Shown here: positions 40,330 to 63,271 of the stretch, piece by piece | Position numbering within the stretch: the stretch's first letter is position 1 | How the letters are laid out: the number at the start of each line of letters is the position of its first letter | Origin: a virus | Taxonomy: Duplodnaviria; Heunggongvirae; Uroviricota; Caudoviricetes | DNA: 64,000 nt | Direction: 5' to 3' (one strand) | IMG/VR virus record: IMGVR_UViG_3300029923_000009 | Notes under the pieces: model-generated | The model's database searches: none | The model's input: the letters and a program-made list of their open reading frames with translations, nothing else | What the model was told of the DNA's origin: nothing | Position numbers and translations under genes: made by a program

Positions 40330-40887
40330 ATGGAATTAAATGAGTTTGGTAGTAAAATCAAGGGTCTTATGGGCTTAAAAGAAAATAAACAAGTAAATGG
40401 TTTTGGTTGTGTGATGTTGTATGTCTACTTTCCAGAATTTAAAGAGTTACAATCTAAAATTGATGAGAAGGATTTATATAATGATGATACAAAGTCATAT
40501 GGTTTTGAAAAATCGGAACATATTACCCTTTTATATGGTCTCCACGAAGAAGTTAAAGATCAACAAGTTAAAGATATTATGAGTAAATTTGATTTTGAAG
40601 ATGTAGAAATTAAAAATGTTTCTTTATTTAAAAATGAAACATTCGAAGTACTAAAATTTGAAGTTTATAAAGAAAAGTATTTATCTAAATGTAATAAGGA
40701 ACTTTCAAAATTACCTAATACAAACGAATATAAAATATTTAATCCTCATTTAACACTGGCGTATTTAAAATTAGGTGAAGGTGATAAATATATTGAAATG
40801 TTTAAAGACCTGAAATATGAATTACAACCAACAAAAATAGTATATTCAAAAATAGATGGTTCGGAATTAAAAATAAAAATTGATTAA
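40330..40887 (+). CDS. 2H-superfamily phosphoesterase (LigT/ThpR- or Acb1-like) (185 aa)
   Basis: Two H-x-T-x motifs (EHITLLYGL and NPHLTLAYL) about 90 residues apart; ~185 aa, the typical size for 2',3'-cyclic phosphodiesterase / 2'-5' RNA ligase family. Confidence 0.65.
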   Translation: MELNEFGSKIKGLMGLKENKQVNGFGCVMLYVYFPEFKELQSKIDEKDLYNDDTKSYGFEKSEHITLLYGLHEEVKDQQVKDIMSKFDFEDVEIKNVSLFKNETFEVLKFEVYKEKYLSKCNKELSKLPNTNEYKIFNPHLTLAYLKLGEGDKYIEMFKDLKYELQPTKIVYSKIDGSELKIKID

Positions 40888-40889
40888 TC

Positions 40890-41081
40890 ATGACAAATAA
40901 AGAATTTTACACCCATACTGGTTTTAACTTTGATGATGTAATTGAAATGTTGAAAAGTGACTCAGTATATACTGTTTTACGTTATGGTTATAAAAACCCA
41001 TCAGATAGTGGTGCTGATGAATGTGATGATTGTAAAAACATTTCACTATATGGTATTTCTCAATTATTACGTTCTATGTGA
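40890..41081 (+). CDS. hypothetical protein (63 aa)
   Basis: ATG ORF; contains CDDC. Confidence 0.45.
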   Translation: MTNKEFYTHTGFNFDDVIEMLKSDSVYTVLRYGYKNPSDSGADECDDCKNISLYGISQLLRSM

Positions 41082-41212
41082 ACTAAACCACCACCAAGCC
41101 GACAGGCTGAAGGAAGGGTATGTTTTGCTTGGATATTAAAAAATACTAATATATTATGTGGTTAATTTGTATAATTATTGCTTTTTATTTTTACTTGGAA
41201 AATGAAGAGCCT

Positions 41213-41240
41213 AACATATATTAAATATTTAATATATGTT
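41213..41240. repeat. perfect 28-bp palindrome
   Basis: AACATATATTAAAT ATTTAATATATGTT; 30 nt upstream of class-II promoter 41270. Confidence 0.6.
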
Positions 41241-41269
41241 AAAGAAATTGTTAATCACATATATTAATC

Positions 41270-41287
41270 GTACATTTGTATCGAATT
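41270..41287 (+). promoter_or_regulatory. class-II promoter GTACATTTGTATCGAATT
   Basis: Identical 18-mer to 37846; ATTGTTAATC upstream; drives the 710-aa gene. Confidence 0.55.
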
Positions 41288-41371
41288 TTAAAACAGTTAT
41301 AAATAAAATTAAACAAGTCCAATTACGAATAAAGTAGTGTTGGAAAGAAAAAAAACAAAAAATTAAAAAAA

Positions 41372-43504
41372 ATGAAAGAACTAACTAATTTAATGCAAGC
41401 ACAATTTGATAAGATGTGCGCTACTGGTAAACTTTTTAGGAGTGAAGTTACTGGTCAAAAAGTTTGGGATGTATATCTTCAAGCTTTTAATCCAGAAGAT
41501 AATCCTATTTTTCGAGATCCAAATTCAACAGTTCATAACTGTAATTTCTGTAAAAATTTTGTTCGTAGGTATGGTAATATTGTTGCTATTGGTGATGATA
41601 ATGAAATTATGTCTATTTGGGGTGTTGATGCACCTGAAGAGTATAAAAATTCAGCAAACACATTAAATAATTTAATAGCAAATTCTAAAATAGTTGAGGT
41701 ATTCTTTGAAACATATAATGAATTAAACTCATTACCTTATGAAAAGAATTGTACTAAAACACAAGCTACATTTAAATTAGGTGTTGAAAAAAATACAAAA
41801 AGGTATACGAAAGAGGAGGCTGAAATGTTCGGTGTTGTAAAGCCAAATGAAGAAATAACTTTCGACCATTTCAATTTATCTATATCAAAACAATTCGTTG
41901 ATCAAACTGGTTCTTCAGTTGAAAGTATAATTGGTAATTATAGAGATTCAAAAAATGTTTTTCAACGTGGGATGGAAGAAATTTCATTAGATACATTGAT
42001 ACTTGTAAAAGATTTAATCAATCAGGAGTCACTACTTGATGGTAAAACTCATTTATTTAAGGTTGAAAAAATGATCACGTTTAAAACAGAATATGAGTCT
42101 AAATCTCAAAAAGAGAAAGATAATTATTGCTGGGTGGCTTCATATAATAATCAGCTTGCTAAGTTCCGTAACGAACTGATTGGTGTACTTTGTAGTGAAT
42201 TGTCTGAGGGTAAGGAACTTAACGAAGCTTGTAAATCTTGGAATAAACGTGTTGATCCAATTAATTATATGAAAACAACTACCCCTATTACCAAGAAACA
42301 AATTGAGGAGGCAAAATTATTTGTAGAGGAAAATGGATTTGTCGAATCTTTTGATAGAAGGTTTGCTACCATTGATGATATAAAGGCATCCGAAATACTT
42401 CACGTTAATATGGGGGATGGATCTATTAAAAATGTTTCAATATTCGATAATGTAAAATCTACTTCGACAAGACACAAGAGGAGTGAATTCGATGGTATTG
42501 ATGAAGTTACAATTGATAAGTTTATGTCTGATATTCTACCTAATTGTACCTCTGTGGAAGCCTTTTTGTTAAGTAAACATGAGGGTAATTTGGTTTCACT
42601 TACCACTTCAAACAAGTCTGAAAGTAAGCCTATTTTTAAATGGAATAATAACTACTCTTGGACTTTTAATGGTAATTTAGCAGGTAAATCTCAAATCAAA
42701 GAAGCTGTTAAAGGACGTGGTGGAAATGTGATTGGTGATGTTAGAATAAGTTTGGCATTCCCTCTAACTACTGATGACTACGATCTTCACGTACAAGATA
42801 CTGATGGAAACCATATTTATTATTCAAATGTAAGACAAAAACACAACTCTTCTGGAATGCTAGATTTAGATGCTCAAGGTGTAGACGGTGCTCAAACCCC
42901 AGAAAAAAGAGTAGAAAACATAATATTTACAGATAAATCAAAAATAAAAAATGGAAATATAAAAATTTGGGTTGAAAATTACTCACAAAGAGGATTAAGA
43001 GTTCCATTTGATATTGAAATTGAAATTGAGGGTGATATTACAACATTAACATATGATAGGAATCATTCAGGTAATAAAGCTGAGGTCGGTAATATTGTAG
43101 TTAAAAATGGTATGTTTGAATTACATCCTGATGCTTATATGACTTTAAAGGAAAGTACAAATTTATCAAAAGAAGTTTATGGGTTGGAAACAAATAATTT
43201 TCATAAGGTTAACTTAGTATGCCTTTCACCTAACCATTGGGGTGATAATAATGTTGGTAATAAGCACTATTTATTTATGTTAGATGGTTGTAAATGTCCA
43301 ACAGATATTAGAAGTTTTCATAATGAAAACCTATTACCTGAATTGGCTGAACATAGAAAAGTATTGGAGGTACTTGGTGCGACTAATATGATTAAGCCAA
43401 CAGATAAACAGCTATCAGGTCTTGGATTTAATGCCACTGTAAGGGATGAGATAGTAGTTAGACTACAAGGTTCATTTAAAAGAGTTATCAAAATTAAATT
43501 TTAA
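41372..43504 (+). CDS. large hypothetical protein (710 aa)
   Basis: Longest ORF in the window; class-II promoter 41270-41287; no motif recognised by eye. Confidence 0.7.
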   Translation: MKELTNLMQAQFDKMCATGKLFRSEVTGQKVWDVYLQAFNPEDNPIFRDPNSTVHNCNFCKNFVRRYGNIVAIGDDNEIMSIWGVDAPEEYKNSANTLNNLIANSKIVEVFFETYNELNSLPYEKNCTKTQATFKLGVEKNTKRYTKEEAEMFGVVKPNEEITFDHFNLSISKQFVDQTGSSVESIIGNYRDSKNVFQRGMEEISLDTLILVKDLINQESLLDGKTHLFKVEKMITFKTEYESKSQKEKDNYCWVASYNNQLAKFRNELIGVLCSELSEGKELNEACKSWNKRVDPINYMKTTTPITKKQIEEAKLFVEENGFVESFDRRFATIDDIKASEILHVNMGDGSIKNVSIFDNVKSTSTRHKRSEFDGIDEVTIDKFMSDILPNCTSVEAFLLSKHEGNLVSLTTSNKSESKPIFKWNNNYSWTFNGNLAGKSQIKEAVKGRGGNVIGDVRISLAFPLTTDDYDLHVQDTDGNHIYYSNVRQKHNSSGMLDLDAQGVDGAQTPEKRVENIIFTDKSKIKNGNIKIWVENYSQRGLRVPFDIEIEIEGDITTLTYDRNHSGNKAEVGNIVVKNGMFELHPDAYMTLKESTNLSKEVYGLETNNFHKVNLVCLSPNHWGDNNVGNKHYLFMLDGCKCPTDIRSFHNENLLPELAEHRKVLEVLGATNMIKPTDKQLSGLGFNATVRDEIVVRLQGSFKRVIKIKF

Positions 43505-43541
43505 AAATTATTAACTAACAAAATTAAAACAATTAATTATT

Positions 43542-43919
43542 ATGGAAATGTACAAAGAAGCTGCAAAGCTGGGATTACGAATTGTTACTGTTAAAGGCCC
43601 TTTGTCGGTAGAACAGTTGTTTGGAACAGATAAGGAAACTCTTATTTTAGCGGAAGAGAGTTTAACTGATCAAGTTGAAAAGCTTGGTAAGGTATCAAGA
43701 AGGTCTACTGGAGTTAGAGGTAAGAATGTTGAGCTTTTAAAATTGAAATTATCAATCGTTTCAGATGTGTTAGATACTATTGAAACGGAAGAAGAAACTG
43801 CAAGAACTGAAGCTGCCAAAAGGCTTAACAATAAGAAAATTATCGAGCTTATAGCTGCTAAAAAAGAACTTCAACTTGGAGAGAAGTCTATCGAAGAACT
43901 TGAATCGATGCTTCAATAG
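43542..43919 (+). CDS. coiled-coil hypothetical protein (125 aa)
   Basis: ATG ORF; Glu/Lys/Leu-rich heptad-like C-terminal half. Confidence 0.55.
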   Translation: MEMYKEAAKLGLRIVTVKGPLSVEQLFGTDKETLILAEESLTDQVEKLGKVSRRSTGVRGKNVELLKLKLSIVSDVLDTIETEEETARTEAAKRLNNKKIIELIAAKKELQLGEKSIEELESMLQ

Positions 43920-44113
43920 TGAAAAAATACTTATTTTACCCTGAAAAGTTAAACTAAAATAATTAACAATTTAAAAACTAATCTTAGTTGTTTCTGATAT
44001 GTTTTTAATACAAAAATTCGGGGTGAAATAAGTTGTAAAATAAATTGGTTGTATTGTTTGTAATTCAAATCATATTTTACACAACTTTTACTGTTTTTTT
44101 TACACAACCAATA

Positions 44114-44151
44114 AGAATTGCCAGTTTGTGAAAATCGGTAATTCTTTTTTT
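44114..44151 (+). terminator. terminator-like hairpin
   Basis: AGAATTGCC ... GGTAATTCT followed by TTTTTT. Confidence 0.45.
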
Positions 44152-44189
44152 AATCTATTATATAATAATTAGCTATTTAAAAAACAAAT

Positions 44190-44501
44190 ATGAAAGCAGA
44201 AGAATTAATTAAAGAGGATCTTATTTCGGTGGATAAATTATCATCTTATCTTTTACCAAAATATGATAATGGGATGATTGAAGATGTTATAACAATCGTT
44301 TTGTTTAGGGATAATCTACGTTATGAAAATAGAAAAACACTTATTAAAGAGCTATCTTTAAAACATTTCTCTTTTGATAATAACCCAAGTATATCACCTC
44401 TTAGAAAACCAATGAAAGCCGAATTGGTTATTTTTGTTGATAAAGATGGCAAAACAAAAATATTAAAAAGTCGTTGGGGAAACCTTGGTATTGTCAAATA
44501 A
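44190..44501 (+). CDS. hypothetical protein (103 aa)
   Basis: ATG ORF after terminator 44114-44151. Confidence 0.5.
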   Translation: MKAEELIKEDLISVDKLSSYLLPKYDNGMIEDVITIVLFRDNLRYENRKTLIKELSLKHFSFDNNPSISPLRKPMKAELVIFVDKDGKTKILKSRWGNLGIVK

Positions 44502-44561
44502 AAAATTAATAAACTAAATCTTTTTTATTTTTCTACACTATTTATATTAAAAATATTTATA

Positions 44562-45050: not shown

Positions 45051-45074
45051 AATAAAACATTTAATGTTAAAATA

Positions 45075-47312: not shown

Positions 47313-48344
47313 ATGAAAAAACTTTGCAAATTCTCGGACATAGGTCAATTTAGGGAAATTTATTCAACAATTAAACATAGAACGCAATACATTGGTAAGG
47401 ATGAAAATGGGGACTGTATGTATGATACAACAATTCCTCTTCCAATTATCAAAGTTTCAGGTACAATAAAAATTGATGGAACAAACGGAGGGATTTCAAT
47501 GAATAAAAATGGTGAAATCTGGGCTCAATCAAAAGACAATATATTGACTTTAAAGAATGATAATTATAATTTTGCTTTCACGTTAGAATCAAAAAAAGAT
47601 GTTTTTAAAGATCTACTAAATAAAATTGATTTCAAAGGATATGATTACATAACTATTTTTGGTGAATTTGCAGGAAAAGGGATACAGGCTGGAATGGCCG
47701 TATGTCAGCTTCCAAGAATATTTGTTATATATGACATTAAGCGATCATATGAAGATAATTCAAAAGGTGATAATAAATATGCGCCAATAGATCAAATTAA
47801 ACTATTGCGTTCACCTGAAAATGATATTTATAACATATATGACTTCCCAACGTTTGAAGTTGAAATTGATTTTAACGAGCCTCAGGCAGCTTTAGATAAA
47901 CTAACTGAAATAACTACCCAAGTTGGTATTAAATGCCCATTTGGTGACGCTATGGGTGTTGAAGGTAGGGGAGAAGGCATAGTTTACACTTTCTTTACTG
48001 AAACTGGTGAAAAACTTAGGTTTAAAGTAAAAGCCGAAAAAAGTAAAATTTCAAAAACGAAGGAATTGGTTGCAATCGATATAGATAGAATGAATTCAAT
48101 TAATGAATTTATTGAGTATGCTGTTACTGAAAATAGATTAAACCAAGGGCTTGAAAAAATATACGGTAACGGAGTTTTGTTTATTGAGAAGATGGGTGAT
48201 TTCTTGAGATGGTTAGCTAATGATATTATTAAAGAAGAAACAGATGTTTTGATTGGGAATAATTTGGAACCAAAAGCCGTTACAGGTGGTATATCAAAAA
48301 AAGGTAGAGATTGGTTGTTGGCTAAAATAAATAATTTCGAATAG
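47313..48344 (+). CDS. ATP-dependent RNA ligase, Rnl2-like (343 aa)
   Basis: Covalent nucleotidyltransferase motifs: I KIDGTN (cf. T4 Rnl2 KIHGTN), III IFGEFAGKG, IV GEGIVYTF, V LRFKVKAEK; length close to T4 Rnl2. Confidence 0.8.
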   Translation: MKKLCKFSDIGQFREIYSTIKHRTQYIGKDENGDCMYDTTIPLPIIKVSGTIKIDGTNGGISMNKNGEIWAQSKDNILTLKNDNYNFAFTLESKKDVFKDLLNKIDFKGYDYITIFGEFAGKGIQAGMAVCQLPRIFVIYDIKRSYEDNSKGDNKYAPIDQIKLLRSPENDIYNIYDFPTFEVEIDFNEPQAALDKLTEITTQVGIKCPFGDAMGVEGRGEGIVYTFFTETGEKLRFKVKAEKSKISKTKELVAIDIDRMNSINEFIEYAVTENRLNQGLEKIYGNGVLFIEKMGDFLRWLANDIIKEETDVLIGNNLEPKAVTGGISKKGRDWLLAKINNFE

Positions 48345-48379: not shown

Positions 48380-48388
48380 TACCTTTGT
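48380..48388 (+). promoter_or_regulatory. -7 box TACCTTTGT
   Basis: 30 nt before ATG 48418. Confidence 0.35.
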
Positions 48389-48417: not shown

Positions 48418-49131
48418 ATGAAAAAAGAATTAAAGCAATTTAAAATATTAAGCGAGTACGATTATAATCTAAAAAACACACAAAAAAGGTTATTTGAATC
48501 ATTTGTAACCATATCGGAAATAAATCGATATTCACATAGATTATCTGAATCGTTGTCTATGGAGTTGGATGCTACAAATTTAACCGAATCTGGTGATCAA
48601 CAAAATGTCTTGGATTTAATCGGTAGTAACCAATATGATGTTAATAATAATATTGAATTTAAGAATTCATTAAAATATGGTAATCGTGGTGAATTTTTAA
48701 GTGATTACACCGAAGATGAATATGGACAAATGAAAACATATAAACTGAAAGGTTATAATATTGGGTTTGCTATTAAGTTGGATGGTGACATAGTTTCACT
48801 TCATAATAATAGTGGTATTGGTGGGTTAGGTGGAGCTTTAGTTAAATCAGCTGTATCATTAGGTGGCACTAAAATGGATCATTTTGATGGATTTTTAACA
48901 GGATTATATTCAAAAAATGGGTTTAATGTTGTTAATTCAGATCAATGGAACGATGATTATTCCCCATCTGATTGGAAATACGTACCTGTAGACATATTTA
49001 ACCCTGATAGCTCGATTTACGCAAATACATTGAAGAAATTCCCAAGTGAAAATGAAATTACTCCAGAATTAAAACAGGAAATTAACTTATATGGTTCTGG
49101 AATGCCAGATGTTGTGTATCGCTCACTATAA
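48418..49131 (+). CDS. protein with C-terminal GNAT-like acetyltransferase fold (237 aa)
   Basis: Track start 48385 is TTG; ATG 48418; GIGGLGGALVKSAVSLG and GLYSKNGFNVV resemble GNAT motif A and the C-terminal GF motif. Confidence 0.5.
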   Translation: MKKELKQFKILSEYDYNLKNTQKRLFESFVTISEINRYSHRLSESLSMELDATNLTESGDQQNVLDLIGSNQYDVNNNIEFKNSLKYGNRGEFLSDYTEDEYGQMKTYKLKGYNIGFAIKLDGDIVSLHNNSGIGGLGGALVKSAVSLGGTKMDHFDGFLTGLYSKNGFNVVNSDQWNDDYSPSDWKYVPVDIFNPDSSIYANTLKKFPSENEITPELKQEINLYGSGMPDVVYRSL

Positions 49132-49151: not shown

Positions 49152-49853
49152 ATGTTTCAAAGCCTATTATTACACATCCCCCATTCAAGTACTTACATTC
49201 CAGATTCTTTTGGAAATATTAATGACTACACATTAATGGGAAATGTTGTTATTCAAACAGATTTATTAGTTGATGACTTATTTTACCACCCAGTAACTAC
49301 AAATGTTAAAACATTAAAATTTATTTATAGTCGGTTTTATTGTGATGTGGAAAGATATTGGGATGACAAAAAAGAACCAATGTCACTAATTGGACAGGGT
49401 GTATATTATAAACAATATTCTGATGGTTCATTAATTAATAGAACCGACTCAAAGGATGATATTAAATTAGTTTACAATGAGCATCACTCAAAATTAAACT
49501 ATATTTCCCAAAAACTTATTGCGGAAAATGGTTCTTGTTTAATCATTGATTGTCATTCTTTTACACCAACGAATGAAAATGAGCCAGATATATGTATTGG
49601 GGTTAATTATGATAAAAATGACCCAGGTCCTGAAACATTATGGTCTATTATAAATCATTTTATTGATAATGGGTATAAATTTAAGATAAATTATCCGTTT
49701 TCAGGATCAATATATCCATCAAAATATTTAAATAAAAACTTAAAATCTATTATGATTGAAGTAAATAAAAATATTTATTTGGGTAATGAGATTAAGTTTT
49801 CGAAATTAAAAAATACAATAAACGAATTATATCATAAATTGTTAAAATATTAA
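49152..49853 (+). CDS. N-formylglutamate amidohydrolase (FGase) family protein (233 aa)
   Basis: HIPHSSTYIP, SRFYCDVERY, LIIDCHSF and SIMIEVNKNIY resemble the conserved blocks of the FGase/zinc-amidohydrolase family (PHxG..P / sRlvvDvNR / DlHS / iEirqdLy). Confidence 0.5.
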   Translation: MFQSLLLHIPHSSTYIPDSFGNINDYTLMGNVVIQTDLLVDDLFYHPVTTNVKTLKFIYSRFYCDVERYWDDKKEPMSLIGQGVYYKQYSDGSLINRTDSKDDIKLVYNEHHSKLNYISQKLIAENGSCLIIDCHSFTPTNENEPDICIGVNYDKNDPGPETLWSIINHFIDNGYKFKINYPFSGSIYPSKYLNKNLKSIMIEVNKNIYLGNEIKFSKLKNTINELYHKLLKY

Positions 49854-50572
49854 TGAAAAATAAACTTTCAATTGTTGCAATTTCCGACCTTCACGGGTAT
49901 CTACCTGAAATAACCGAAGAAGCTGATATAATGATCATCGGTGGGGATATTTCTCCTTTAAATATTCAACGTAATAAACCTAAAACGAAAATTTGGCTTG
50001 AAACAACGTTTCTCGAATGGGTCAATAATTTACCAGTTAAGAAAGTATTCCTTGTGGCTGGTAATCATGATTTTGCGTTAGAGGGTTTATCTGATACTGA
50101 AAAATATTTTTTTGAAAAATTATTTGGCGGAAAACTTAAATATTTAGAAAACGAAACATTTAACCACGTTGATGATAACGGTTGTTCTTGGGTGATTTTT
50201 GGAACGCCTTATTGTCACATATTTAGTTCTGGTTGGGTATTTATGATACCAGATGATAATATGTATTTCAAATTTCTGAAAATTCCAGATGAAGTTGATA
50301 TAATTATTTCTCATGACCCGCCTTATGGTGTTGGTGAAGTTGATGTTATTTTGGAACAATATAATTTAAATGAACCAATCACGCATATTGGAAATAAACC
50401 TTTAGCAAAAAGATTGCAACAAATCAAATATAAATTTCTATGCTGTGGTCATATACATAGTGGTAGCCATATACCATATGAATTTAATGGTGGAAAATGT
50501 GTAAACGTTTCGATCAAAGATGAAGATTACCAACCAATCTATCATCCATTTTATTATACATTAGAAAAATGA
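49853..50572 (+). CDS. calcineurin-like metallophosphoesterase (239 aa)
   Basis: Motifs DLHG, GGD, GNHD, HD and GHIHSGSH in the canonical order; TAATG overlap with the upstream gene. Confidence 0.8.
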   Translation: MKNKLSIVAISDLHGYLPEITEEADIMIIGGDISPLNIQRNKPKTKIWLETTFLEWVNNLPVKKVFLVAGNHDFALEGLSDTEKYFFEKLFGGKLKYLENETFNHVDDNGCSWVIFGTPYCHIFSSGWVFMIPDDNMYFKFLKIPDEVDIIISHDPPYGVGEVDVILEQYNLNEPITHIGNKPLAKRLQQIKYKFLCCGHIHSGSHIPYEFNGGKCVNVSIKDEDYQPIYHPFYYTLEK

Positions 50573-50973
50573 TAGAACTAATAATATTTATAGGACTTAT
50601 CTTGGTGATCTCTTGGTATGGTGTTAAAGTATCAATAGGTGGTGCAAGTTTTGAAATATTTCCAATTAAACGATTTTTTACTAAATTAAATGTGATTAAA
50701 ATACAAAAAAAAGTAAACAAACAAGCTATTAGCGATGTACAAATGGGTGATTTCGGTAGATGGCTTGAAAAAAATTATGTTGGAGAATTTAATATTTATA
50801 ACACAACAATCACACCACCGAAAAAATTAGAAATATCAGATTTAATCGAAATATATAAAAAAGAAGTATTAAACTATAATGATACTTGCCCATTTTGTAA
50901 TTCAAAACACCTTCACTCATTTGTATTAAAACACACGAAATGTAAATCCTGTGACCAAATGTGGACTGATTAA
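50569..50973 (+). CDS. membrane-anchored zinc-ribbon protein (134 aa)
   Basis: N-terminal TM helix; C-terminal CPFCNSKH...CKSC; ATGA overlap. Confidence 0.5.
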   Translation: MIELIIFIGLILVISWYGVKVSIGGASFEIFPIKRFFTKLNVIKIQKKVNKQAISDVQMGDFGRWLEKNYVGEFNIYNTTITPPKKLEISDLIEIYKKEVLNYNDTCPFCNSKHLHSFVLKHTKCKSCDQMWTD

Positions 50974-51246: not shown

Positions 51247-51468
51247 ATGAAAAATAATAATAATATTAAAACTGGAATAATCGATATTGATAATATATTA
51301 TCAAATGGGATTAATCCAACTGAATTAGAATTAATTATTGGCCCACCAACAGTTGGTATGAAACATATGTCAGTATATATGGAAAGAGCTAAAAGATTAA
51401 TGAAGGAAGCTGGTATTGGCGTTATTGAAACTAATACAGACCCAATTATAACTATCTGTAATGAATAA
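51247..51468 (+). CDS. hypothetical protein (73 aa)
   Basis: ATG ORF. Confidence 0.45.
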   Translation: MKNNNNIKTGIIDIDNILSNGINPTELELIIGPPTVGMKHMSVYMERAKRLMKEAGIGVIETNTDPIITICNE

Positions 51469-52162
51469 CGACACTATTAAAATATGTTTCATAGGGGACA
51501 TCCACGGAAAATCTGTTTGGAAAAAATTCATAAAAGATCCAACCATTAACTTTTTCGTGTTCTCTGGTGACTATGTTGATAATGATATGGGTATGGTTAT
51601 TTCTGATGAAGAAATGATTGAAAATTTTCAAGACATTATTGATTTCAAACGTAAAAATATGAATAGTGTTATTGTCCTAAAAGGGAACCACGATTTAAGT
51701 TACTGGTATTTAAACTATCCAATATTTAAATGTTCTCGTTTTAGGGAAAGTATTGCGATGGAACTAAACGACCTATATTCTTTCAATAAAGATTTATTCC
51801 AAAACGCTTGGCAATATAAAAATGTGGTTGCGACTCACGCTGGAATACAACATAATTGGTTTATAAACGAGTTTAAAGGTGATATCACACTAAACGTAGC
51901 TGATCAACTAAATAATCCGAAAGATGAAAATCAGTTAAATGCATTATATCAAGTTGGTAAAATTAGGGGTGGGTGGAAAGATGTTGGTGGTATATTTTGG
52001 GCTGATAAAAGTGAACTTAATAAATCATTAAAAGGAGTTATTCAGGTTGTTGGGCATAATAGAGTTAAAGATATTTCATATTATATAAATAAAAATTATG
52101 GTGAAATATATTTTATTGATTGCTTAGGCTATAAAGAAAACTGTCTAATATTAGAACTATAA
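51461..52162 (+). CDS. PPP-family (lambda phosphatase/ApaH-like) metallophosphatase (233 aa)
   Basis: GDIHG ... GDYVD ... GNHD motif series, spacing as in GDxHG/GDxVDRG/GNHE phosphatases. Confidence 0.75.
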   Translation: MNNDTIKICFIGDIHGKSVWKKFIKDPTINFFVFSGDYVDNDMGMVISDEEMIENFQDIIDFKRKNMNSVIVLKGNHDLSYWYLNYPIFKCSRFRESIAMELNDLYSFNKDLFQNAWQYKNVVATHAGIQHNWFINEFKGDITLNVADQLNNPKDENQLNALYQVGKIRGGWKDVGGIFWADKSELNKSLKGVIQVVGHNRVKDISYYINKNYGEIYFIDCLGYKENCLILEL

Positions 52163-53315: not shown

Positions 53316-54188
53316 ATGAAAAAAGAAACCTTAAGAGAAAACATAGCAAAACTTGTTAGAAGCGGAATTCAGGAAATAAAAGAAAAACAATTCATAACTG
53401 AAGACCTTATCACATTCGGTAGTGGAAGACCTAATTACGATCAGGTTGTTATCTTAGCTGGTGGTACGGGGGTTGGTAAAGGATTTGTATTAAATAATCT
53501 TGTTGGTATACAGGGGAAAGTTTTTGATGTAGACCAACTAAAATCTCTTGGTATAAGAAGTAAGTTGATTAAAGACAAGGTTTTAAGTTTAACAGGTAGA
53601 GATATTACTGAACTTGATTTACGTAATCCTTATGACGTTTCATTTCTACACGATGTATTCAAAGAACTACAAATTGCCGATAAGCAAGTTGAAAATTTAT
53701 TAAATGCAATGGTTGGAAGAGAAAATAAACCTAATTTGATTTTTGATGTTACCCTCGCAAATTTAGCAAAATTAGAATATGTTTCAAATCAAGTTGTTGA
53801 ATATGGTTATTCAATGGAAAATATTCATATTGTATGGATAATTAATGATATTGAGGTTGCAAGAGCTCAGAATAAAAATAGACCAAGGGTTGTATCGGAA
53901 GCTATGTTTACACAAATTCACGATCAAGTATTTCTTAGTTTAAAAAATATACTTACAGGTAGATTTCCAATCTTAGATTATATGAGCGGTGATTTTTATA
54001 TTGTTTTTAACCAAAAGAATGTCGATACTGAAATGTCTTTTTCACCAATGGGCGGAAGATATGTAAATAAAACAAACTATATTAAAATCAAAGGAAAAAA
54101 TAAACCAATGAAAACCATTGATGAAATAACCCAAGCTGTTATTGATAAAATAGTTCTTTATTCTGGAACAGACAACACACCGCTATAA
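53316..54188 (+). CDS. P-loop NTPase, possible (poly)nucleotide kinase (290 aa)
   Basis: Walker-A-like VVILAGGTGVGKGF near the N-terminus; hhhhD-like IFDVT later; which kinase family is not resolvable by eye. Confidence 0.5.
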   Translation: MKKETLRENIAKLVRSGIQEIKEKQFITEDLITFGSGRPNYDQVVILAGGTGVGKGFVLNNLVGIQGKVFDVDQLKSLGIRSKLIKDKVLSLTGRDITELDLRNPYDVSFLHDVFKELQIADKQVENLLNAMVGRENKPNLIFDVTLANLAKLEYVSNQVVEYGYSMENIHIVWIINDIEVARAQNKNRPRVVSEAMFTQIHDQVFLSLKNILTGRFPILDYMSGDFYIVFNQKNVDTEMSFSPMGGRYVNKTNYIKIKGKNKPMKTIDEITQAVIDKIVLYSGTDNTPL

Positions 54189-54227: not shown

Positions 54228-54252
54228 AGACTTGCTTTTGTGAGTCTTTTTT
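54228..54252 (+). terminator. rho-independent terminator
   Basis: AGACT TGCTTTTGTG AGTCT followed by TTTTT. Confidence 0.45.
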
Positions 54253-54332: not shown

Positions 54333-55319
54333 ATGGATAATCTAATAGAACAAACGCATCAAATAAAAATATATGGAAGAAATATTAGCTATTATAAAAA
54401 AATTGGGTATAATTGTGTTTATGGCGAAATTATAACTGTAACCTCAAGTAATCTAAACCCTTCAACATCTGAAAGAGTTAAGTGTGTTTGCTCTGAATGT
54501 GGAAAAATTGTGGATGTACCTTTTAAACAATATATGAACTGTAAAAAGGGATTTGTATGTTCTAGTAAATGTAAAATGAGAAAAACAAATAGAAATTTAA
54601 AAGATGAATTTGGGGTTACTAATTTCTCTCAATTAAAAGAAATTAAAGAAAAAAAGAAACAATCAGCAATAAAAAAATATGGTGTTGATAATATTTCGCA
54701 ATCTAAAGAAATTAAAGAACAGAAAAAACAATCTTCACTTAGGGTTTATGGTGTTGATAATATATCACAATCTGAGATTATTAAAAAACAGAAAATCACT
54801 ACTTGTAAATTACACTACGGTGTCGAATATGCGCTCCAGTCTACTAAGATTAAGAATAAAATAATTAAGAAATTACAATTAAAATATGGAGACAATATTA
54901 CTAATATTAGTCAAGTTGCGGAAATTATGGATAAAAAATTTTTAACTGGAATATGTGCAAAAAAATATACTCTTCCATCTGGAAGAATAGTAAGTTATCA
55001 AGGTTATGAACATTATGGGTTACAATATTTGTTAGCCAATGGATATGTAGAAGATGATATTGTGATAGGTAATAAAGAAATCGAAAATATAATAGGAAAA
55101 ATTATGTTTTACGATTTAAAAGTAAATAAGAATAGAAGATACTTTCCAGACATTTATATTAAAAGTGAGAATAAAATATACGAAGTAAAATCAACTTACA
55201 CAATAAAATTAAACGTTGATTTAATTAAAATGAAAGAAGATGCCGTTATCAGAGGTGGCTTTCCGCATGAATTTCTTATTTTTGATGCTAAAGGAAATAG
55301 AAAAGAGCATATTATTTAA
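54333..55319 (+). CDS. repeat-containing PD-(D/E)xK nuclease, candidate homing endonuclease (328 aa)
   Basis: N-terminal Cys cluster (CVCSECGK...CSSKC); three tandem ~21-aa repeats (YGVDNISQSKEIKEQKKQS); C-terminal FPDIYI...IYEVKS matches the PD-(D/E)xK core; flanked by terminator 54228-54252. Confidence 0.5.
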   Translation: MDNLIEQTHQIKIYGRNISYYKKIGYNCVYGEIITVTSSNLNPSTSERVKCVCSECGKIVDVPFKQYMNCKKGFVCSSKCKMRKTNRNLKDEFGVTNFSQLKEIKEKKKQSAIKKYGVDNISQSKEIKEQKKQSSLRVYGVDNISQSEIIKKQKITTCKLHYGVEYALQSTKIKNKIIKKLQLKYGDNITNISQVAEIMDKKFLTGICAKKYTLPSGRIVSYQGYEHYGLQYLLANGYVEDDIVIGNKEIENIIGKIMFYDLKVNKNRRYFPDIYIKSENKIYEVKSTYTIKLNVDLIKMKEDAVIRGGFPHEFLIFDAKGNRKEHII

Positions 55320-55391: not shown

Positions 55392-55949
55392 ATGAAGTAC
55401 CTATTTCTTGATTTTGATGGTGTTTTAAACGTTATACCCGAAGGATTTGATGATTTTGGTTCGATATTTCATAAACATTTTGTGTCAAATCTTAAACGAA
55501 TAATTGATGAGACTGATTGTAAGATCATAATTACATCTTCTTGGAGACAAAGTGGTTTAAAATTTATTCAAGATATGTGGGGATTTAGAAATTATCCAGG
55601 GGAAATACTTGATGTGACACCTACACTACGGTTACAAAAAGGTGGTTCTATTCAATTTTGGAATGATAAATTATCAAGGCACCCAACAGAATCAATTGGT
55701 GGATATTCAATACCAAGAGGGTGTGAAATAGAATATTGGCTCAATCACGAAAGTGAAAAATTTGGAGAAATTGAATCGTGGGCTTGTGTTGACGACGACA
55801 CAGATTTTTTATTTAACCAAAAAGATAACTATGTTCAATGTAGCGAAAACCATGATCACATAGATAAAATAGATTACGGTTACGGTTTAACAGATATATG
55901 TACACAAAAGGTAATTGATATTCTAAATAATGTTAAAATAATTGCTTAA
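55392..55949 (+). CDS. HAD-superfamily phosphatase (185 aa)
   Basis: Motif I FLDFDGVLN (DxDGV), motif II IIITSSW, motif IV CVDDDTD; class-II promoter 55357-55370. Confidence 0.7.
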   Translation: MKYLFLDFDGVLNVIPEGFDDFGSIFHKHFVSNLKRIIDETDCKIIITSSWRQSGLKFIQDMWGFRNYPGEILDVTPTLRLQKGGSIQFWNDKLSRHPTESIGGYSIPRGCEIEYWLNHESEKFGEIESWACVDDDTDFLFNQKDNYVQCSENHDHIDKIDYGYGLTDICTQKVIDILNNVKIIA

Positions 55950-58631: not shown

Positions 58632-58904
58632 ATGGAGCTGAACGATTTAATAGGTAAAAACTTCAAATATATCTCCAAATATGGTGATAAGAAGGAATGT
58701 GACTGGATTGGAACTGTTGAAAATTGTATAATAATCCAAGAATGTAGAGGTTCCAAATGGGAAATGTTTAAACCAGTTATTAAAATAAAATCAGTTGCTG
58801 GACCAGTATATGAATTAAATGAATTAATATTTTTTACATTTAAACCCAAAGTAGATACTCATTTGAGTACTGAAAATAAAAATAACTTATTAATAATAAA
58901 ATAA
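58632..58904 (+). CDS. hypothetical protein (90 aa)
   Basis: ATG ORF; contains a TACTCA-TT-TGAGTA palindrome near its 3' end. Confidence 0.5.
   Translation: MELNDLIGKNFKYISKYGDKKECDWIGTVENCIIIQECRGSKWEMFKPVIKIKSVAGPVYELNELIFFTFKPKVDTHLSTENKNNLLIIK
58856..58869. repeat. TACTCA-NN-TGAGTA palindrome (copy 6, intragenic)
   Basis: TACTCATTTGAGTA inside the 3' end of ORF 58632-58904. Confidence 0.4.
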
Positions 58905-58922
58905 TAGATTATATAATATAAT

Positions 58923-59186
58923 ATGACAGAAGAAAAACTTAAAGAAATGCTCCAAAATAGATATCGCGATACAAAGTCGTATTGGAGTTTAGCACCTGTA
59001 GATTCAAAATATGCCGAAATGGTAATTGATGTTATGAAAGACGTTTATAATCAGGGCGTATCCGACGCGATAAATAATGCTAAATTAATAGATAAAAAAA
59101 TAGAATACGATGGTGTTAGGGCTGGTGGTTATCATATCGAACGTGTTATAGATGAAGATTCAATTTTAAAACTATTAATGTCATGA
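58923..59186 (+). CDS. hypothetical protein (87 aa)
   Basis: ATG ORF. Confidence 0.5.
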   Translation: MTEEKLKEMLQNRYRDTKSYWSLAPVDSKYAEMVIDVMKDVYNQGVSDAINNAKLIDKKIEYDGVRAGGYHIERVIDEDSILKLLMS

Positions 59187-59425
59187 AAAAATTAATACCA
59201 CTTATTTTTGCTATTTTACTATTTTCCTCGTGTACAAAGGATTTATCAAAAGTTTATGACTATGAGGTTATTGATACAACTTATGTCGCAAAAAATGGTT
59301 ATGGAACTATACTCGATTATATAGTTATTATTAAAATTGATACCACATATTATTCAGCTACTATAGATAATTATAGTAGATTAGTTGAAATAAATAAAAA
59401 ACTTAAAATTAAAAATCTAAAATAA
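59183..59425 (+). CDS. lipoprotein (80 aa)
   Basis: MKKLIPLIFAILLFSSC signal peptide with lipobox Cys; ATGA overlap. Confidence 0.5.
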   Translation: MKKLIPLIFAILLFSSCTKDLSKVYDYEVIDTTYVAKNGYGTILDYIVIIKIDTTYYSATIDNYSRLVEINKKLKIKNLK

Positions 59426-59429
59426 AATT

Positions 59430-59678
59430 ATGAATTCACTATCTTATTTATTACGATCTCTTATGGGATTGGATGTTCCAGCTCAAAAAAAATGTAAAAT
59501 TTGTAAAACTATTATACCATTAAATGGTGAACATTTAGATACATATAAATGCTCGGTTAAAACAATTGGTTTTGATGAAACAGGTGTACAAATTGAAACA
59601 AAAGAAGATGTTAATTATCGTATTGTGCAATGTCCTAACTGTTTAAATGAAATTAAATTATATTCACTTCAAAAATAA
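59430..59678 (+). CDS. zinc-ribbon protein (82 aa)
   Basis: CKIC ... CPNC. Confidence 0.5.
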   Translation: MNSLSYLLRSLMGLDVPAQKKCKICKTIIPLNGEHLDTYKCSVKTIGFDETGVQIETKEDVNYRIVQCPNCLNEIKLYSLQK

Positions 59679-59681
59679 TCT

Positions 59682-59921
59682 ATGGAAAACTTCATTGAAT
59701 TAACTAAATTCGTTGATCGTTTAAAAAAGATTGGTATTAATCTTAATTTATGTGCTAATTTTCCGTGGATTTATATTGATAAAATTAATAATAAAAAAGT
59801 TGTTGAAAAATTCCAAGCAAATCATGGTTTTACACTTGGTTATTATCCAATAAAACGTGATGGGGATTTTAAATTTAGTGATTTGAATGAAATATTTAAA
59901 CTAATTAGAAAATACAAATAA
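59682..59921 (+). CDS. hypothetical protein (79 aa)
   Basis: ATG ORF. Confidence 0.5.
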   Translation: MENFIELTKFVDRLKKIGINLNLCANFPWIYIDKINNKKVVEKFQANHGFTLGYYPIKRDGDFKFSDLNEIFKLIRKYK

Positions 59922-59924
59922 TAT

Positions 59925-60605
59925 ATGGAAAATTATAAGATAATCACTGACGAAGTTGCTTTGTGTAATTTTATAGATTGGTTGCCAGAGTTAGAAGATG
60001 GGGAGGGATACTATGTTACATTATTATGTCGTAATAAATATACCGATAAATTATTAAAAGATAAGGTTCAATTGAAGAGAATAACATCAAATAAAGAATT
60101 TTTATTTGATAAAATTAAACAAATGGAATGTGAACTTGGCACATATAAATACAAAGGTGAACCAATTCCTGTTGAATCAATGTGTTTATATATCACACCA
60201 AACCCAAGAAGTTACGAGAAAGCTGGTAAGAATTTAGCTAAAAAGTTAATAGATTTATGTTTTGATAAATATAGCGGATATAACCCACAAGCTGAAGCAT
60301 TAACAGCTATCCAAAAAGCTTGTAGTAGAACTGTTTTTATGGATTTTGACTTTGATAATACAACTATTGAAGAAATGAAGTCAAGTATTGTTGAAGTAAT
60401 TAACGAGAGTGCAATAACTTTTGTGCAAACTCACGGGGGATTTCACGTTCTTATTGAAGTATCAAAGATTGAAGATAAATATAAAAAGACTTATTATAAT
60501 GGTATAACTAAATTACCTAATTGTGATGCCAGGGGTGACGGATTACTGCCCATATGTGGCTGTTTTCAAGGAGGAGTAACCCCACTATTAATTAAGGCTA
60601 TTTAG
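59925..60605 (+). CDS. hypothetical protein (226 aa)
   Basis: ATG ORF. Confidence 0.55.
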   Translation: MENYKIITDEVALCNFIDWLPELEDGEGYYVTLLCRNKYTDKLLKDKVQLKRITSNKEFLFDKIKQMECELGTYKYKGEPIPVESMCLYITPNPRSYEKAGKNLAKKLIDLCFDKYSGYNPQAEALTAIQKACSRTVFMDFDFDNTTIEEMKSSIVEVINESAITFVQTHGGFHVLIEVSKIEDKYKKTYYNGITKLPNCDARGDGLLPICGCFQGGVTPLLIKAI

Positions 60606-60689
60606 AATAATTTATAAATAACAAGTTTTTGGAAATTAATTTAAATAAAAACGTGAATAAATTCCATTCCCGTATATTTATAAATAGAA

Positions 60690-60869
60690 ATGAATATGAA
60701 AAATAAAAAAACAACAATTAATTTTACGATTGATCCAGATCTAAAATATGATTTTATTAAAATTAGTGATGAATTTGGTTTTAATAGATCTAAAATGATT
60801 TCTAATTTTATTAGAAAATGGTGTGAAGAAAATAAGAGTATTAACAATTTAAAGAATGACGAAAGATGA
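60690..60869 (+). CDS. putative ribbon-helix-helix (Arc/CopG-like) DNA-binding protein (59 aa)
   Basis: ATG ORF absent from the track, which shows a minus-strand ORF here; TTINFTIDPDLKYDFIKISDEFGFNRSKMISNFIRKW fits a beta-strand + two-helix RHH pattern; its stop overlaps the start of 60856 by 14 nt. Confidence 0.4.
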   Translation: MNMKNKKTTINFTIDPDLKYDFIKISDEFGFNRSKMISNFIRKWCEENKSINNLKNDER

Positions 60870-62142
60870 ATTTATTAAAAAAGCAAAAGCAAAACATGGT
60901 GACAAATATGATTATTCACTGGTTGAATATGTAAAATCAAATATCAAAGTAATCATAATTTGTCCAGAACATGGCGAATTTTTACAATTACCAAATTCCC
61001 ATTTGGTGGGTAATGGGTGTAACAAATGTGGAATAAAATTAAAAAGTGATAAACTTAGGCACAACAATGATATTTTTATCTCTAAAGCAATTGTGATACA
61101 TGGAGATAAATATAATTATACTAAGATAGATTATAAAAATGCTCAAACTAAAGTATGTATCATTTGTCCTATACATGGTGAATTTTGGCAAACACCAAGT
61201 GATCATTTACAAGGTAGGGGATGTTCTATGTGTGGAAATGTTAATAGATCTTTAAGCAAAACTAATAATACTGAATACTTTATTAAAAAATCTAATAAAA
61301 AACATAATTTTAAATATGATTATTCCAAGACTAATTATGTAAATAGTGAGAGTGACGTATGTATAGTTTGCCCAGAACATGGGGAGTTTTATCAAAAAGC
61401 TAATTCACACATGATTGGTTATGGATGTTCTAAATGTGGCGGAAACTTTATGGATTTAGATACATTCATTGAAAAATCTAAAGAAAAACATAATAATAAA
61501 TTCACATATGAAAATGTTGATTACATAAATTCAATAATTAAAGTAGATATAACATGCCCGATTCATGGCGAATTTTGGCAAACACCAAATAGTCATTTAG
61601 ATGGTAAAGGATGCCCTAAGTGTTCAGGTAGTTATATGGATTATAATTATTTTATTGAAAAAACAAAACTAATTCATAGAGATAAATATGATTATTCAAA
61701 GGTAGAATATAAAGGAACCAATATAAAGGTTAAAATAATATGCCCTATTCACGGAGAATTTTGGCAAACACCTCATAATCATTTAAAAGGTCAGGGATGT
61801 CCTAAATGTAATGAAAGTAAAGGTGAAAAAATTGTAAATCAAACATTAACAAATTTTAAACTTAAATTTATTCGGGAACATAAATTTGATGATTGTAGAT
61901 ATAAATATTCTCTCCCATTTGATTTTTATATTCCTAAATATAATACTTGTATTGAATACGATGGGGAACAACATTATAAACAAGTAGATAGATTTGGTGG
62001 AATAGAAGGTTTTGAATCAATTCAAAGAAATGATAAAATAAAAACCCAATATTGCCTTGATAATAATATTAAGTTAATTAGAATTCCTTATACGGAATTT
62101 AATAATATAGAAGAAATATTAAATAAAGAAATTTATGATTGA
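60856..62142 (+). CDS. multi-zinc-finger protein with C-terminal Vsr/DUF559-like PD-(D/E)xK nuclease domain, candidate homing endonuclease (428 aa)
   Basis: Five tandem ~45-aa modules (CPxHGEFxQxPxxHLxGxGCxKCg); C-terminus PFDFYIPKYNTCIEYDGEQHY...QRNDKIKTQYCLDNNIKLIRIP matches the DUF559 very-short-patch-repair-like endonuclease pattern. Confidence 0.65.
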   Translation: MTKDEFIKKAKAKHGDKYDYSLVEYVKSNIKVIIICPEHGEFLQLPNSHLVGNGCNKCGIKLKSDKLRHNNDIFISKAIVIHGDKYNYTKIDYKNAQTKVCIICPIHGEFWQTPSDHLQGRGCSMCGNVNRSLSKTNNTEYFIKKSNKKHNFKYDYSKTNYVNSESDVCIVCPEHGEFYQKANSHMIGYGCSKCGGNFMDLDTFIEKSKEKHNNKFTYENVDYINSIIKVDITCPIHGEFWQTPNSHLDGKGCPKCSGSYMDYNYFIEKTKLIHRDKYDYSKVEYKGTNIKVKIICPIHGEFWQTPHNHLKGQGCPKCNESKGEKIVNQTLTNFKLKFIREHKFDDCRYKYSLPFDFYIPKYNTCIEYDGEQHYKQVDRFGGIEGFESIQRNDKIKTQYCLDNNIKLIRIPYTEFNNIEEILNKEIYD

Positions 62143-63271
62143 AAATTTAATTTTTGAAGCTATTGTTGGTAGCGTTGCTTATGGTACAAATATTGAAACC
62201 AGTGATTTAGATAAAAAGGGTATTTTTTTATGCCCTATTGATAATTTATTATCATTTGGCTATACCGAGCAAATTAATGTAACTAAAGATGAAACGTACT
62301 ATGAGGTTCGTCGATTTTTAGAATTATGTTCTGTCGGAAATCCGACCTGTTTAGAATTGCTATTTTCTGATGATGAATATATTTTACATACATCACCTCA
62401 ATTTGAACTAATACGTGAAAATAGGGATGTGTTTGTAACAAAAAAATGCGCAAATGCCTTTACTTCATATGGTTACAGTCAGATTTCAAAGGCAAATTCG
62501 TTGGGTAAAAAATTAAATTACAATGAAAATGATTATAAATTAAAGACACCTTTAGATTTTATATATTTTTATAATAATGGTAAAACATATTCTTTTAAAG
62601 AATATTTGAACGACAATGGGCTATTACAAGAAAAATGTGGCTTAGTTCGATTGGATCATATGAAAGATTGTTATGCCGTTTATTATGATTACAATAATGA
62701 TGGTTATAGAGGAATAATTGGTGAAAATAGTAATGAGGTTAGATTGTCATCTATTAAAAAAGGAGAAACGCCATTTGTGATGATATATTATAATGTTGAA
62801 GCATATTCAAAGTTCATGAAGGAGTGGAAGGAGTATAATGAATGGTTAAAAAATAGGAACACCCAAAGATATGTTGATGTTAAAAAGCACGGACAAACTC
62901 TAAGTGGTTCATTTATAGATGGTAAGAACCTATTGCATTGTCGGAGGCTCATCGATGTGGGGGTTTCGATTGCCACTACAGGCACTTTTACCGTTAAACG
63001 CCCAAATGCCGACTATTTACTTTCAATCAAACGTGGTGAAGTTCCTTTAGATAAAATAATTGAAGATGCAGAACGCGATATCGCTGGTTTACAGGAATTG
63101 TATGATAAATCAAATTTACCAGAAAAAGTTGATCCACTATTTGTAAAAGAATTATTACTTAAGATTAGGAAAATGCCAATTGATGATATTAATATAATAT
63201 CAACCAAAAGCCTTCCATTTGATTCTAATAAAATAATTGATGAAATATTAAATGAAGAAATTAAACAATGA
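62135..63271 (+). CDS. Pol-beta-superfamily nucleotidyltransferase, RlaP/PF10127-like (378 aa)
   Basis: N-terminal IVGSVAYGTNIETSDLDKKGIF (GS-x9-SDxD NTase motif) followed by RFLELCSVGNPTCLELLFS, which resembles the second conserved block of the family; ATGA overlap. Confidence 0.65.
   Translation: MIENLIFEAIVGSVAYGTNIETSDLDKKGIFLCPIDNLLSFGYTEQINVTKDETYYEVRRFLELCSVGNPTCLELLFSDDEYILHTSPQFELIRENRDVFVTKKCANAFTSYGYSQISKANSLGKKLNYNENDYKLKTPLDFIYFYNNGKTYSFKEYLNDNGLLQEKCGLVRLDHMKDCYAVYYDYNNDGYRGIIGENSNEVRLSSIKKGETPFVMIYYNVEAYSKFMKEWKEYNEWLKNRNTQRYVDVKKHGQTLSGSFIDGKNLLHCRRLIDVGVSIATTGTFTVKRPNADYLLSIKRGEVPLDKIIEDAERDIAGLQELYDKSNLPEKVDPLFVKELLLKIRKMPIDDINIISTKSLPFDSNKIIDEILNEEIKQ

Follow-up and report, generated by a model that had tools for sequence, protein, structure and literature searches.

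The DNA considered here is a 64-kb window (64,000 nucleotides (nt), the whole stretch analysed) of IMG/VR virus record IMGVR_UViG_3300029923_000009, in which a first-pass annotation had proposed a dispersed set of RNA end-processing enzymes between positions 40330 and 63271. The open reading frames (ORFs) concerned are all present on the + strand, and family-model searches, motifs and solved relatives bear out the fold or family given to each of the named genes. They are the following:

40330-40887, + strand: 2H phosphoesterase, between Acb1 and LigT/ThpR, with two HxT motifs (HITL and HLTL)
47313-48344, + strand: Rnl2-like ATP-dependent RNA ligase (PF09414, 4.5e-11; phrog_548, 1e-48, full length)
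48418-49131, + strand: GNAT-fold acyltransferase of an unannotated phage family that has no Pfam model, with a motif-A-like acyl-CoA site
49152-49853, + strand: FGase-family amidohydrolase (PF05013, 8e-33, 114.8 bits against a cut-off of 28.9, positions 2-219 of 219)
49853-50572, + strand: MPPED2-like metallophosphoesterase (PF00149, 3.6e-13; MPPED2 3rl4, E = 1.7e-8)
51461-52162, + strand: PPP-family metallophosphatase (PF00149, 1e-11)
53316-54188, + strand: P-loop kinase of the polynucleotide kinase (PNK)/Zeta/AvrRxo1 clade, candidate 5'-kinase (phrog_5268)
55392-55949, + strand: stand-alone SAK-type HAD phosphatase, candidate RNA 3'/2'-phosphatase (PF18143 HAD_SAK_2, 4.7e-20, 72.8 bits against a cut-off of 27.5)
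62135-63271, + strand: RlaP-family Pol-beta nucleotidyltransferase (PF10127, 1.2e-15, 58.3 bits against a cut-off of 23; phrog_388, full length, 5.8e-53)

All plausible genes across the window lie on the + strand, tight single-strand spacing holds for nearly all genes of the genome, and the GC content is 25-31% throughout (~27%). A search for near-identical DNA among deposited phage records returned no match, and the phage is without a cultured close relative. Metagenomic contigs as long as 263 kb encode proteins identical to the kinase and to the GNAT protein, which identifies the source as an uncultured jumbo phage; the 64 kb analysed thus belong to a genome of at least 263 kb. Homologues of the PPP-like phosphatase are present in Bacteroidota genomes and, together with the low GC content, are a weak pointer to a Bacteroidota species as the possible host. 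The Rfam scan of the window gave zero matches, and the promoter scan was uninformative at 27% GC (143 sites against 139 expected). The 23 kb in question lie in the accessory-gene region of this phage and mix two kinds of genes. As argued below, they probably hold an RNA (tRNA) repair set of an already described jumbo-phage kind, together with genes that are not demonstrably in that pathway.

The ligase, RlaP and the SAK-type HAD phosphatase

The ligase scores 43.6 bits with PF09414 (cut-off 27) and its identity to phage proteins that carry the annotation RnlB or RNA ligase 2 is 38-39%, with 99% of the protein aligned. Its motifs I (KIDGTN), III (FGEFAG), IV (EGIV) and V (KVK, within FKVK) are readable, and T4 Rnl2 is its sole solved relative (E = 0.014). 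The RlaP-family protein, of 378 amino acids, has the catalytic motif GSVAYG...SDLD (GS...DLD), and its C-terminal part fits the phage family phrog_388 and not the Pfam model. RlaP enzymes add one or two nucleoside monophosphates to damaged RNA 3' ends and restore tRNA function in vitro, and T4 NrdC.11 is a member of the family (PMC12776372). In the HAD protein, motif I (DxDGV, as LDFDGV) and motif IV (DDD, as VDDD) are intact; judged from its genomic context, it is a candidate for the removal of 2'- or 3'-phosphates from RNA ends. By profile scores above the curated cut-offs and by intact catalytic motifs, these three proteins are assigned to families that are defined by RNA repair.

In the window, RlaP and the ligase lie 14 kb apart, and homologues of the three genes are closer to each other in several other phages. 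A HAD_SAK_2 gene, Thg1 and RlaP are contiguous in L028/L029, with the HAD homologue heading the operon. A ligase homologue lies 4.7 kb from RlaP in L031, and the kinase, RlaP and the ligase all fall within 10 kb of one another in L005, L007 and L008. In phage KP15, Rnl2, the kinase, an NT5C-type HAD and a SAK-type HAD are found inside 7 kb, the SAK-type HAD at 2 kb from the kinase. A related-locus scan using RlaP itself yielded no confirmed relatives. The RlaP homologue of L031 is split into two ORFs (15754-16491 and 17639-18121) about 1.1 kb apart, which could reflect an intron, the insertion of a mobile element or a disrupted gene.

That HAD, RlaP and ligase homologues are repeatedly linked agrees with a 2021 survey of jumbo phages (Iyer et al., PMC7824862, section 3.4.9), which builds on Burroughs and Aravind (2016). 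In that survey Rnl1/Rnl2, PNK, 2H, stand-alone SAK-HAD, occasional calcineurin-like phosphatases and RlaP co-vary, and RlaP tracks the ligases. From this published phyletic correlation and from the loci examined here, the grouping of the ligase, RlaP and HAD families is beyond chance; the same does not hold for the other genes. The first-pass annotation, which recognised no classic repair operon in the arrangement of GNAT, FGase and ligase, did not take account of this survey, where the dispersed complement had already been documented.

The 2H protein and the two metallophosphoesterases

The 2H protein had been counted among the repair enzymes as well. It falls under the cut-off of every Pfam and NCBIfam 2H model, with scores of 22.3, 21.7 and 29.8 bits for the LigT/ThpR models PF02834, PF13563 and TIGR02258 (cut-offs 23.3, 27 and 65.7, respectively) and 18.4 bits for Acb1 (PF23474, cut-off 27). 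The clade to which it belongs is distinct and large (3196 representatives). By these comparisons, the protein appears as close to the anti-CBASS enzyme Acb1 as to LigT/ThpR. There is about an even chance that it is an Acb1-type phosphodiesterase, directed against CBASS or another immune signal, rather than an RNA 2',3'-cyclic phosphodiesterase. The Pfam Acb1 model is matched by 30 of 40 close homologues (E<1e-3), several of them above the cut-off, and 2_5_RNA_ligase2 by 29 of the 40. Among solved structures, the profile ranks Acb1 9q2g first (E = 1.6e-3) and also retrieves T4 Acb1 (7t26); however, archaeal LigT-like structures are nearly tied with Acb1 (2fyh, 3e-3). All 27 multidomain members examined are fused to domains of the counter-defence type, namely ADP-ribosyltransferase, GNAT, RNase_T and SAM (S-adenosylmethionine) lyase, and never to repair domains. 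On the other side, the window protein itself scores higher with LigT, 2_5_RNA_ligase2 and TIGR02258 (RNA 2',3'-cyclic phosphodiesterase, 4.8e-7) than with Acb1 (1.9e-3). Its place in a repair set, given these fusions and its nearness to Acb1, is not sustained.

Close 2H homologues also occur within polyvalent-type proteins that carry SAM-lyase, ADP-ribosyltransferase toxin-like or GNAT domains (P0421, 1518 amino acids; P0299, 806 amino acids; P0315; P0345). The GNAT domains fused to 2H homologues were considered as members of the GNAT family of the window and rejected, as they are different.

Of the three phosphatases that had been taken to represent different folds, the families were identified correctly, but only two folds are involved, since two of the proteins are metallophosphoesterases and one is a HAD phosphatase. 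The PPP-like protein belongs to the PPP family, with GDxHG (GDIHG), GDYVD and GNHD invariant; its family profile matches PP1, PP2A and calcineurin (1e-6 to 1e-5), and these matches are confined to the N-terminal half. Neither metallophosphoesterase recurs with repair genes in any locus examined, contrary to their proposed membership of the repair set, and the MPPED2-like gene does not recur with the FGase/GNAT pair at other loci. Judged by sequence comparison, neither the MPPED2-like nor the PPP-like phosphatase appears to have a demonstrable link to RNA. These two enzymes, and the 2H protein, might nevertheless be able to open a 2',3'-cyclic phosphate or to take off a 3'-phosphate.

A P-loop kinase and its phosphohydrolase neighbors

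The kinase belongs to a family (phrog_5268) that matches 215 phage records and at least 523 IMG/VR loci, carried by T4-like and jumbo phages. Public labels for the family are inconsistent, reading "polynucleotide kinase" in one record and "head morphogenesis" or "portal" in others, and nothing specific to it was found in the literature. The window protein has the P-loop kinase fold of the PNK clade. The comparison figures are 11.6 for AvrRxo1, 11.5 for Zeta toxin, 11.0 for the kinase domain of Clostridium thermocellum Pnkp, 9.6 for PSTK, 9.4 for mammalian PNKP and 8.6 for T4 Pnk. Its sole Pfam similarity is to Zeta_toxin (PF06414), at 20.3 bits and thus under the cut-off of 22.3. The canonical Walker A motif GxxxxGK[ST] and the general base in DxxR are absent from the family, in which GGxGxGKGF, DVDxLK (Lys for Arg) and QNxxRxR are invariant. 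With Gly at the Walker A Ser/Thr site, Mg2+ coordination is puzzling. In L008, the kinase homologue (8852-10783, 643 amino acids) gives a profile match that is split between residues 24-56 and 382-642; the LAGLIDADG-containing insert, placed just past the P-loop, looks like an intein.

The neighbors of the kinase were compared after 80 loci had been fetched in addition to a first small sample; the resulting 96 loci, dereplicated at 70% identity, represent 29 lineages. A phosphohydrolase is fused to the kinase, adjacent to it or within 1.5 kb in 11 of the 29 lineages, and none is found in the other 18. These partners span four families: NT5C-HAD, SAK-HAD, HD and metallophosphoesterase. The NT5C-type HAD is the most recurrent neighbor (5 lineages, downstream of the kinase in 15 of 16 cases), and it is fused to the kinase in two further lineages (P0081/L037; L046/L047). 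An HD protein adjoins the kinase in L024, and other lineages have a SAK-HAD or a metallophosphoesterase no more than 1.5 kb away.

In two T4-like phages, KP15 (L017, 136865-149683) and Morganella phage vB_Mm5 (L019), the kinase and the NT5C gene form a two-gene unit on the strand opposite to all neighbors. The unit has hoc on one side and rnlB (Rnl2) on the other, and NAMPT, a sigma-70 decoy and, in Mm5 only, an ADP-ribosyltransferase are encoded in the same region. Another kinase-phosphohydrolase architecture, a fusion of HD and AAA_33 (PNK-like kinase; 436-1497), occurs in the same kind of island, with a second, faint Zeta-like kinase, in L009, a T4-like phage contig which also bears an FGase and GNAT pair. 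KP15 carries a canonical PseT Pnkp (KP15_65) and Rnl1 in addition to the kinase; the idea that the kinase replaces PseT Pnkp by non-orthologous displacement was for this reason rejected.

That the kinase is a polynucleotide kinase is a possibility to which we give somewhat less than an even chance. A broader and more tentative proposal, which we consider rather unlikely in full, is that the phrog_5268 kinase and its interchangeable phosphohydrolase (NT5C-HAD, fused or adjacent; SAK-HAD; HD) constitute an unrecognised two-component enzyme for healing nucleic-acid ends, a Pnkp analogue that would serve the Rnl2-like/RlaP branch beside the classical PseT/Rnl1 branch.

An alternative that we find plausible, although also below even odds, is that the kinase and its HAD or HD partner act on a small molecule in the manner of Zeta and AvrRxo1 (nicotinamide adenine dinucleotide (NAD), nucleosides, nucleotides, nucleotide sugars or nucleotides used in immune signalling), with a role in metabolism or counter-defence. 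Zeta_toxin being the only Pfam similarity fits this alternative, as do the deoxyribonucleotidase affiliation of the commonest partner, the NAD-salvage and ADP-ribose genes near the kinase in KP15, Mm5 and L022, and the coexistence with a canonical Pnkp in KP15. However, a kinase joined to a phosphatase of interchangeable fold (NT5C-HAD, SAK-HAD, HD or metallophosphoesterase) is the design of Pnkp, and an epsilon-type antitoxin was not seen among the recurrent neighbor families. A kinase for a small molecule or nucleotide and a polynucleotide kinase are about equally likely. A DNA-base kinase of the 5-HMUDK type, engaged in DNA hypermodification, would suit the setting of the kinase in L005 (among TAGT, a pyridoxal phosphate-dependent enzyme and a DNA methylase) and the fact that 5-HMUDK is itself a phage kinase acting on DNA, but it is very improbable and was rejected, since none of the 215 matching phage records is one of the known carriers (ViI-like, M6-like, PhiW-14 or SP10), the window holds no dUMP hydroxymethylase or glycosylase-like partner, and KP15 has an ordinary thymidylate synthase.

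The GNAT and FGase genes as a separate module

From the ligase to position 50973 the genes form a tightly spaced block, as had been noted at first. The ligase and the GNAT gene are separated by 74 nt, and the GNAT and FGase genes by 20 nt; the start of the MPPED2-like gene overlaps the FGase stop by 1 nt, and a 4-nt overlap follows. The GNAT fold was called correctly, but the gene probably starts at 48418 (giving 237 amino acids) and not at 48385. Across 57 dereplicated lineages of the GNAT family, the FGase gene adjoins the GNAT gene in 10 (L001, L009 and L012/L013 among them) and lies within 6 kb in 4 more. A SAM lyase adjoins it in 2 lineages and is fused to it in P0174, and a SAM synthetase adjoins it in 1. 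In about 20 lineages the GNAT domain is found inside giant polyvalent-type proteins of 800-3200 amino acids. The FGase, GNAT and SAM lyase genes are contiguous in L001 (9995-11327 and the next ORF), and loci with the pair or a partner were also noted in L026 and L027. A 215-amino-acid ORF preceding the GNAT gene in L010 was considered as a divergent FGase and rejected, as it showed no similarity. Nothing specific was found in the literature on FGase and GNAT in phages.

The GNAT and FGase genes are an independent conserved two-gene module, and their place beside the ligase is incidental, because the pair recurs across lineages and an Rnl2 ligase adjoins the GNAT family in only 1 of the 57, which is this window. 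The earlier proposal that GNAT, FGase and ligase make up a new coupled RNA-repair operon, suggested by their tight spacing, is consequently rejected as most improbable, given also the other partners of the GNAT family (FGase, SAM lyase and SAM synthetase) and the tight same-strand spacing that is general in this genome.

A probable RNA repair set in a mixed accessory region

Under the repair reading, RNA cut by a host anticodon nuclease or a similar RNase would bear a 5'-OH on one side of the break and a 2',3'-cyclic phosphate or 3'-phosphate on the other. The stand-alone SAK-type HAD may take off the 3'/2'-phosphate, the PNK-clade kinase would probably phosphorylate the 5'-OH, RlaP could put back one or two lost 3' nucleotides, and the Rnl2-like ligase would then close the break. 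The GNAT and FGase pair, the 2H protein and the two metallophosphoesterases more likely represent separate counter-defence or metabolite-modifying functions. The idea of an RNA-repair toolkit is retained for about half of the genes. It applies to the ligase, to RlaP as the enzyme adding 3' nucleotides, to the HAD as a 3'-phosphatase candidate and, as a possible source of the 5'-phosphorylation step, to the PNK-clade kinase. It is not supported for the 2H protein, the two metallophosphoesterases or the GNAT and FGase genes.

Several observations weigh against a repair set. The tRNA scan detected no tRNA genes in the 64-kb window. In the ligase, the C-terminal domain PF18043 (T4_Rnl2_C) was undetected at E<=0.01, though it was found in KP15 Rnl2, and the score with TIGR02307, the NCBIfam Rnl2 equivalog, is 26.9 bits and far below its cut-off of 197. 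Because of these two results, and in spite of the full-length phrog_548 match and the identity to "RnlB" proteins, the protein is classified by profile as Rnl2-like and not as Rnl2 sensu stricto. Most of the other points concern the kinase. Throughout its family, Gly takes the place of the Ser or Thr of Walker A. Rnl2 lies within 10 kb of the kinase in 5 of the 29 lineages and RlaP in 2 of the 29, which is about the chance expectation for a 20-kb span of a 150-250-kb genome; the physical link between kinase and Rnl2 that the first small sample had hinted at was accordingly downgraded. NT5C, the most recurrent partner, is a deoxyribonucleotidase family, which would suit a role in nucleotide metabolism no less than one in end healing, and KP15 has PseT Pnkp and Rnl1 as well as the kinase. 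The 64-kb window lacks a PseT homologue, although a canonical Pnkp is possible elsewhere in the genome of at least 263 kb. Finally, the substrates, the order of the steps and the part played by the kinase are deduced from activities that are predicted from sequence.

A more general alternative is that there is no coordinated toolkit, and that the region is an accessory or counter-defence island in which each enzyme acts on its own substrate, such as SAM, host proteins, nucleotide pools or immune signals made of cyclic nucleotides or derived from NAD. That the heal-and-seal set looks complete would then be due to the selection of hydrolases from among about 60 genes. The homologue islands are indeed rich in counter-defence genes: L005 and L022 both have a SAM lyase beside the kinase, L022 has Gad2, Macro and NADAR as well, and NAMPT occurs in KP15 and L028. 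The fusion partners of the 2H family, the presence of the GNAT family in giant polyvalent-type proteins, the proximity of kinase and Rnl2 being no more than chance, and the two metallophosphoesterases without an RNA link all agree with such an island. Nevertheless, RNA repair is the defining context of RlaP, HAD_SAK_2 and Rnl2, and the biochemistry of RlaP is in agreement with it; the contiguous HAD-Thg1-RlaP operon in L028 and the published co-variation of RlaP with RNA ligases point the same way. We thus consider the absence of any coordinated set unlikely, and prefer a repair set embedded among unrelated accessory genes.

If the repair reading of the core genes is correct, the stretch provides one more example of the documented jumbo-phage repair of RNA cut by host abortive-infection nucleases, which is a useful annotation and not a surprising one. 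What remains new are two widespread and uncharacterised associations, the pairing of kinase and phosphatase and the module of GNAT with FGase or SAM lyase. A large kinase family, annotated at present as "hypothetical" or "Zeta toxin domain", appears to be paired consistently with a phosphatase, which makes its substrate an inexpensive biochemical question. The pairing of the GNAT family with FGase or SAM lyase, or its inclusion in giant polyvalent proteins, suggests a so far unexplored activity in counter-defence or in the modification of metabolites.

Homing-endonuclease genes and flanking genes

Three further features lie among the genes described above:

54228-54247, + strand: terminator-like hairpin and T-run just 3' of the kinase gene (8-bp stem, 4-nt loop, TTTTTAT; consensus match only)
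54333-55319, + strand: homing-endonuclease gene (PF24308 DUF7487, 3.8e-39; phrog_3339 and phrog_12131, both "homing endonuclease"), with a PD...E.K-like C-terminal motif
60856-62142, + strand: homing-endonuclease gene (DUF723/DUF4379; phrog_559, 3e-102, "HNH endonuclease"; phrog_9084, "homing endonuclease")

The second endonuclease has treble-clef zinc finger repeats and a nuclease domain, and its gene overlaps the start of RlaP by 8 nt. The order in the window is kinase, terminator-like hairpin, homing-endonuclease gene and SAK-HAD. Small ORFs and homing-endonuclease genes are scattered between the repair genes and account for their spacing; the kinase and the HAD have one such endonuclease gene precisely between them. 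In L003/L004, L009 and L031, genes related to the two endonuclease genes likewise adjoin kinase or ligase genes.

Between the 2H gene and the ligase, the ORF at 41372-43504 (710 amino acids) belongs to phrog_1735, a very widespread family of unknown function with 549 phage records, among them ViI-like, Klebsiella, Bacillus and Caulobacter phages; the closest relative of the protein (62% identity) is in a 462-kb uncultured phage (LR756500.1). Upstream, the window encodes a Band_7/SPFH protein (19221-20048), a GmrSD_N (DUF262) nuclease-like protein (31653-32501), a GHKL-type ATPase (HATPase_c_3, 527 amino acids; 36151-37734) and a weak second GNAT (9093-9638). Most other scanned ORFs of the first 40 kb are without a family match.

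Comparison with known systems

The kinase differs from the Zeta toxin and AvrRxo1 nucleotide-sugar and NAD kinases (PF06414) in its score under the Pfam cut-off and in its Walker A, which reads GKG and not GKT. Phosphohydrolases and SAM lyase recur as neighbors of its family, whereas antitoxin families do not. The 2H protein shares two HxT motifs with Acb1 (T4 gene 57B) and LigT/ThpR, and its profile matches to both have similar E-values; it differs from them in falling under the curated cut-offs and in belonging to its own distinct clade.

The Pnkp/Hen1 system of C. thermocellum, in which kinase, metallophosphoesterase and ligase are joined in Pnkp, differs from the window, where there is neither such a fusion nor Hen1. 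The metallophosphatases of the window have no demonstrable link to RNA, and recurrence of such an enzyme with the kinase is limited to an unrelated metallophosphoesterase in L021. In the Pseudomonas RtcB-RlaP-RtcA operons (PMC12776372), as in the window, a member of the RlaP family is associated with an RNA ligase. However, the window ligase is of the 5'-P/3'-OH ATP-dependent type and not RtcB, it is separated from RlaP by the 14 kb mentioned above, and the C-terminal part of the window RlaP fits phrog_388 instead of the Pfam model.

The T4 system of Pnkp (PseT), Rnl1/Rnl2 and NrdC.11 is built on the same logic, combining a 5'-kinase and a HAD 3'-phosphatase with an ATP-dependent ligase and a member of the RlaP family. 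In the window, by contrast, kinase and phosphatase are separate genes with a homing-endonuclease gene between them, the kinase is of another family, a PseT homologue is absent, and the ligase is distant from T4 Rnl2. Differences from the jumbo-phage complement (PMC7824862) are that the survey names a PNK-HAD fusion, whereas the window kinase is an unannotated, Zeta-like phrog_5268 protein with a GKG Walker A, and that the 64 kb are without tRNA genes. In other respects the two agree: an Rnl2-family ligase, RlaP and a stand-alone HAD, with optional 2H or calcineurin-like phosphoesterases, are encoded by genes that are dispersed and not gathered in a single operon.

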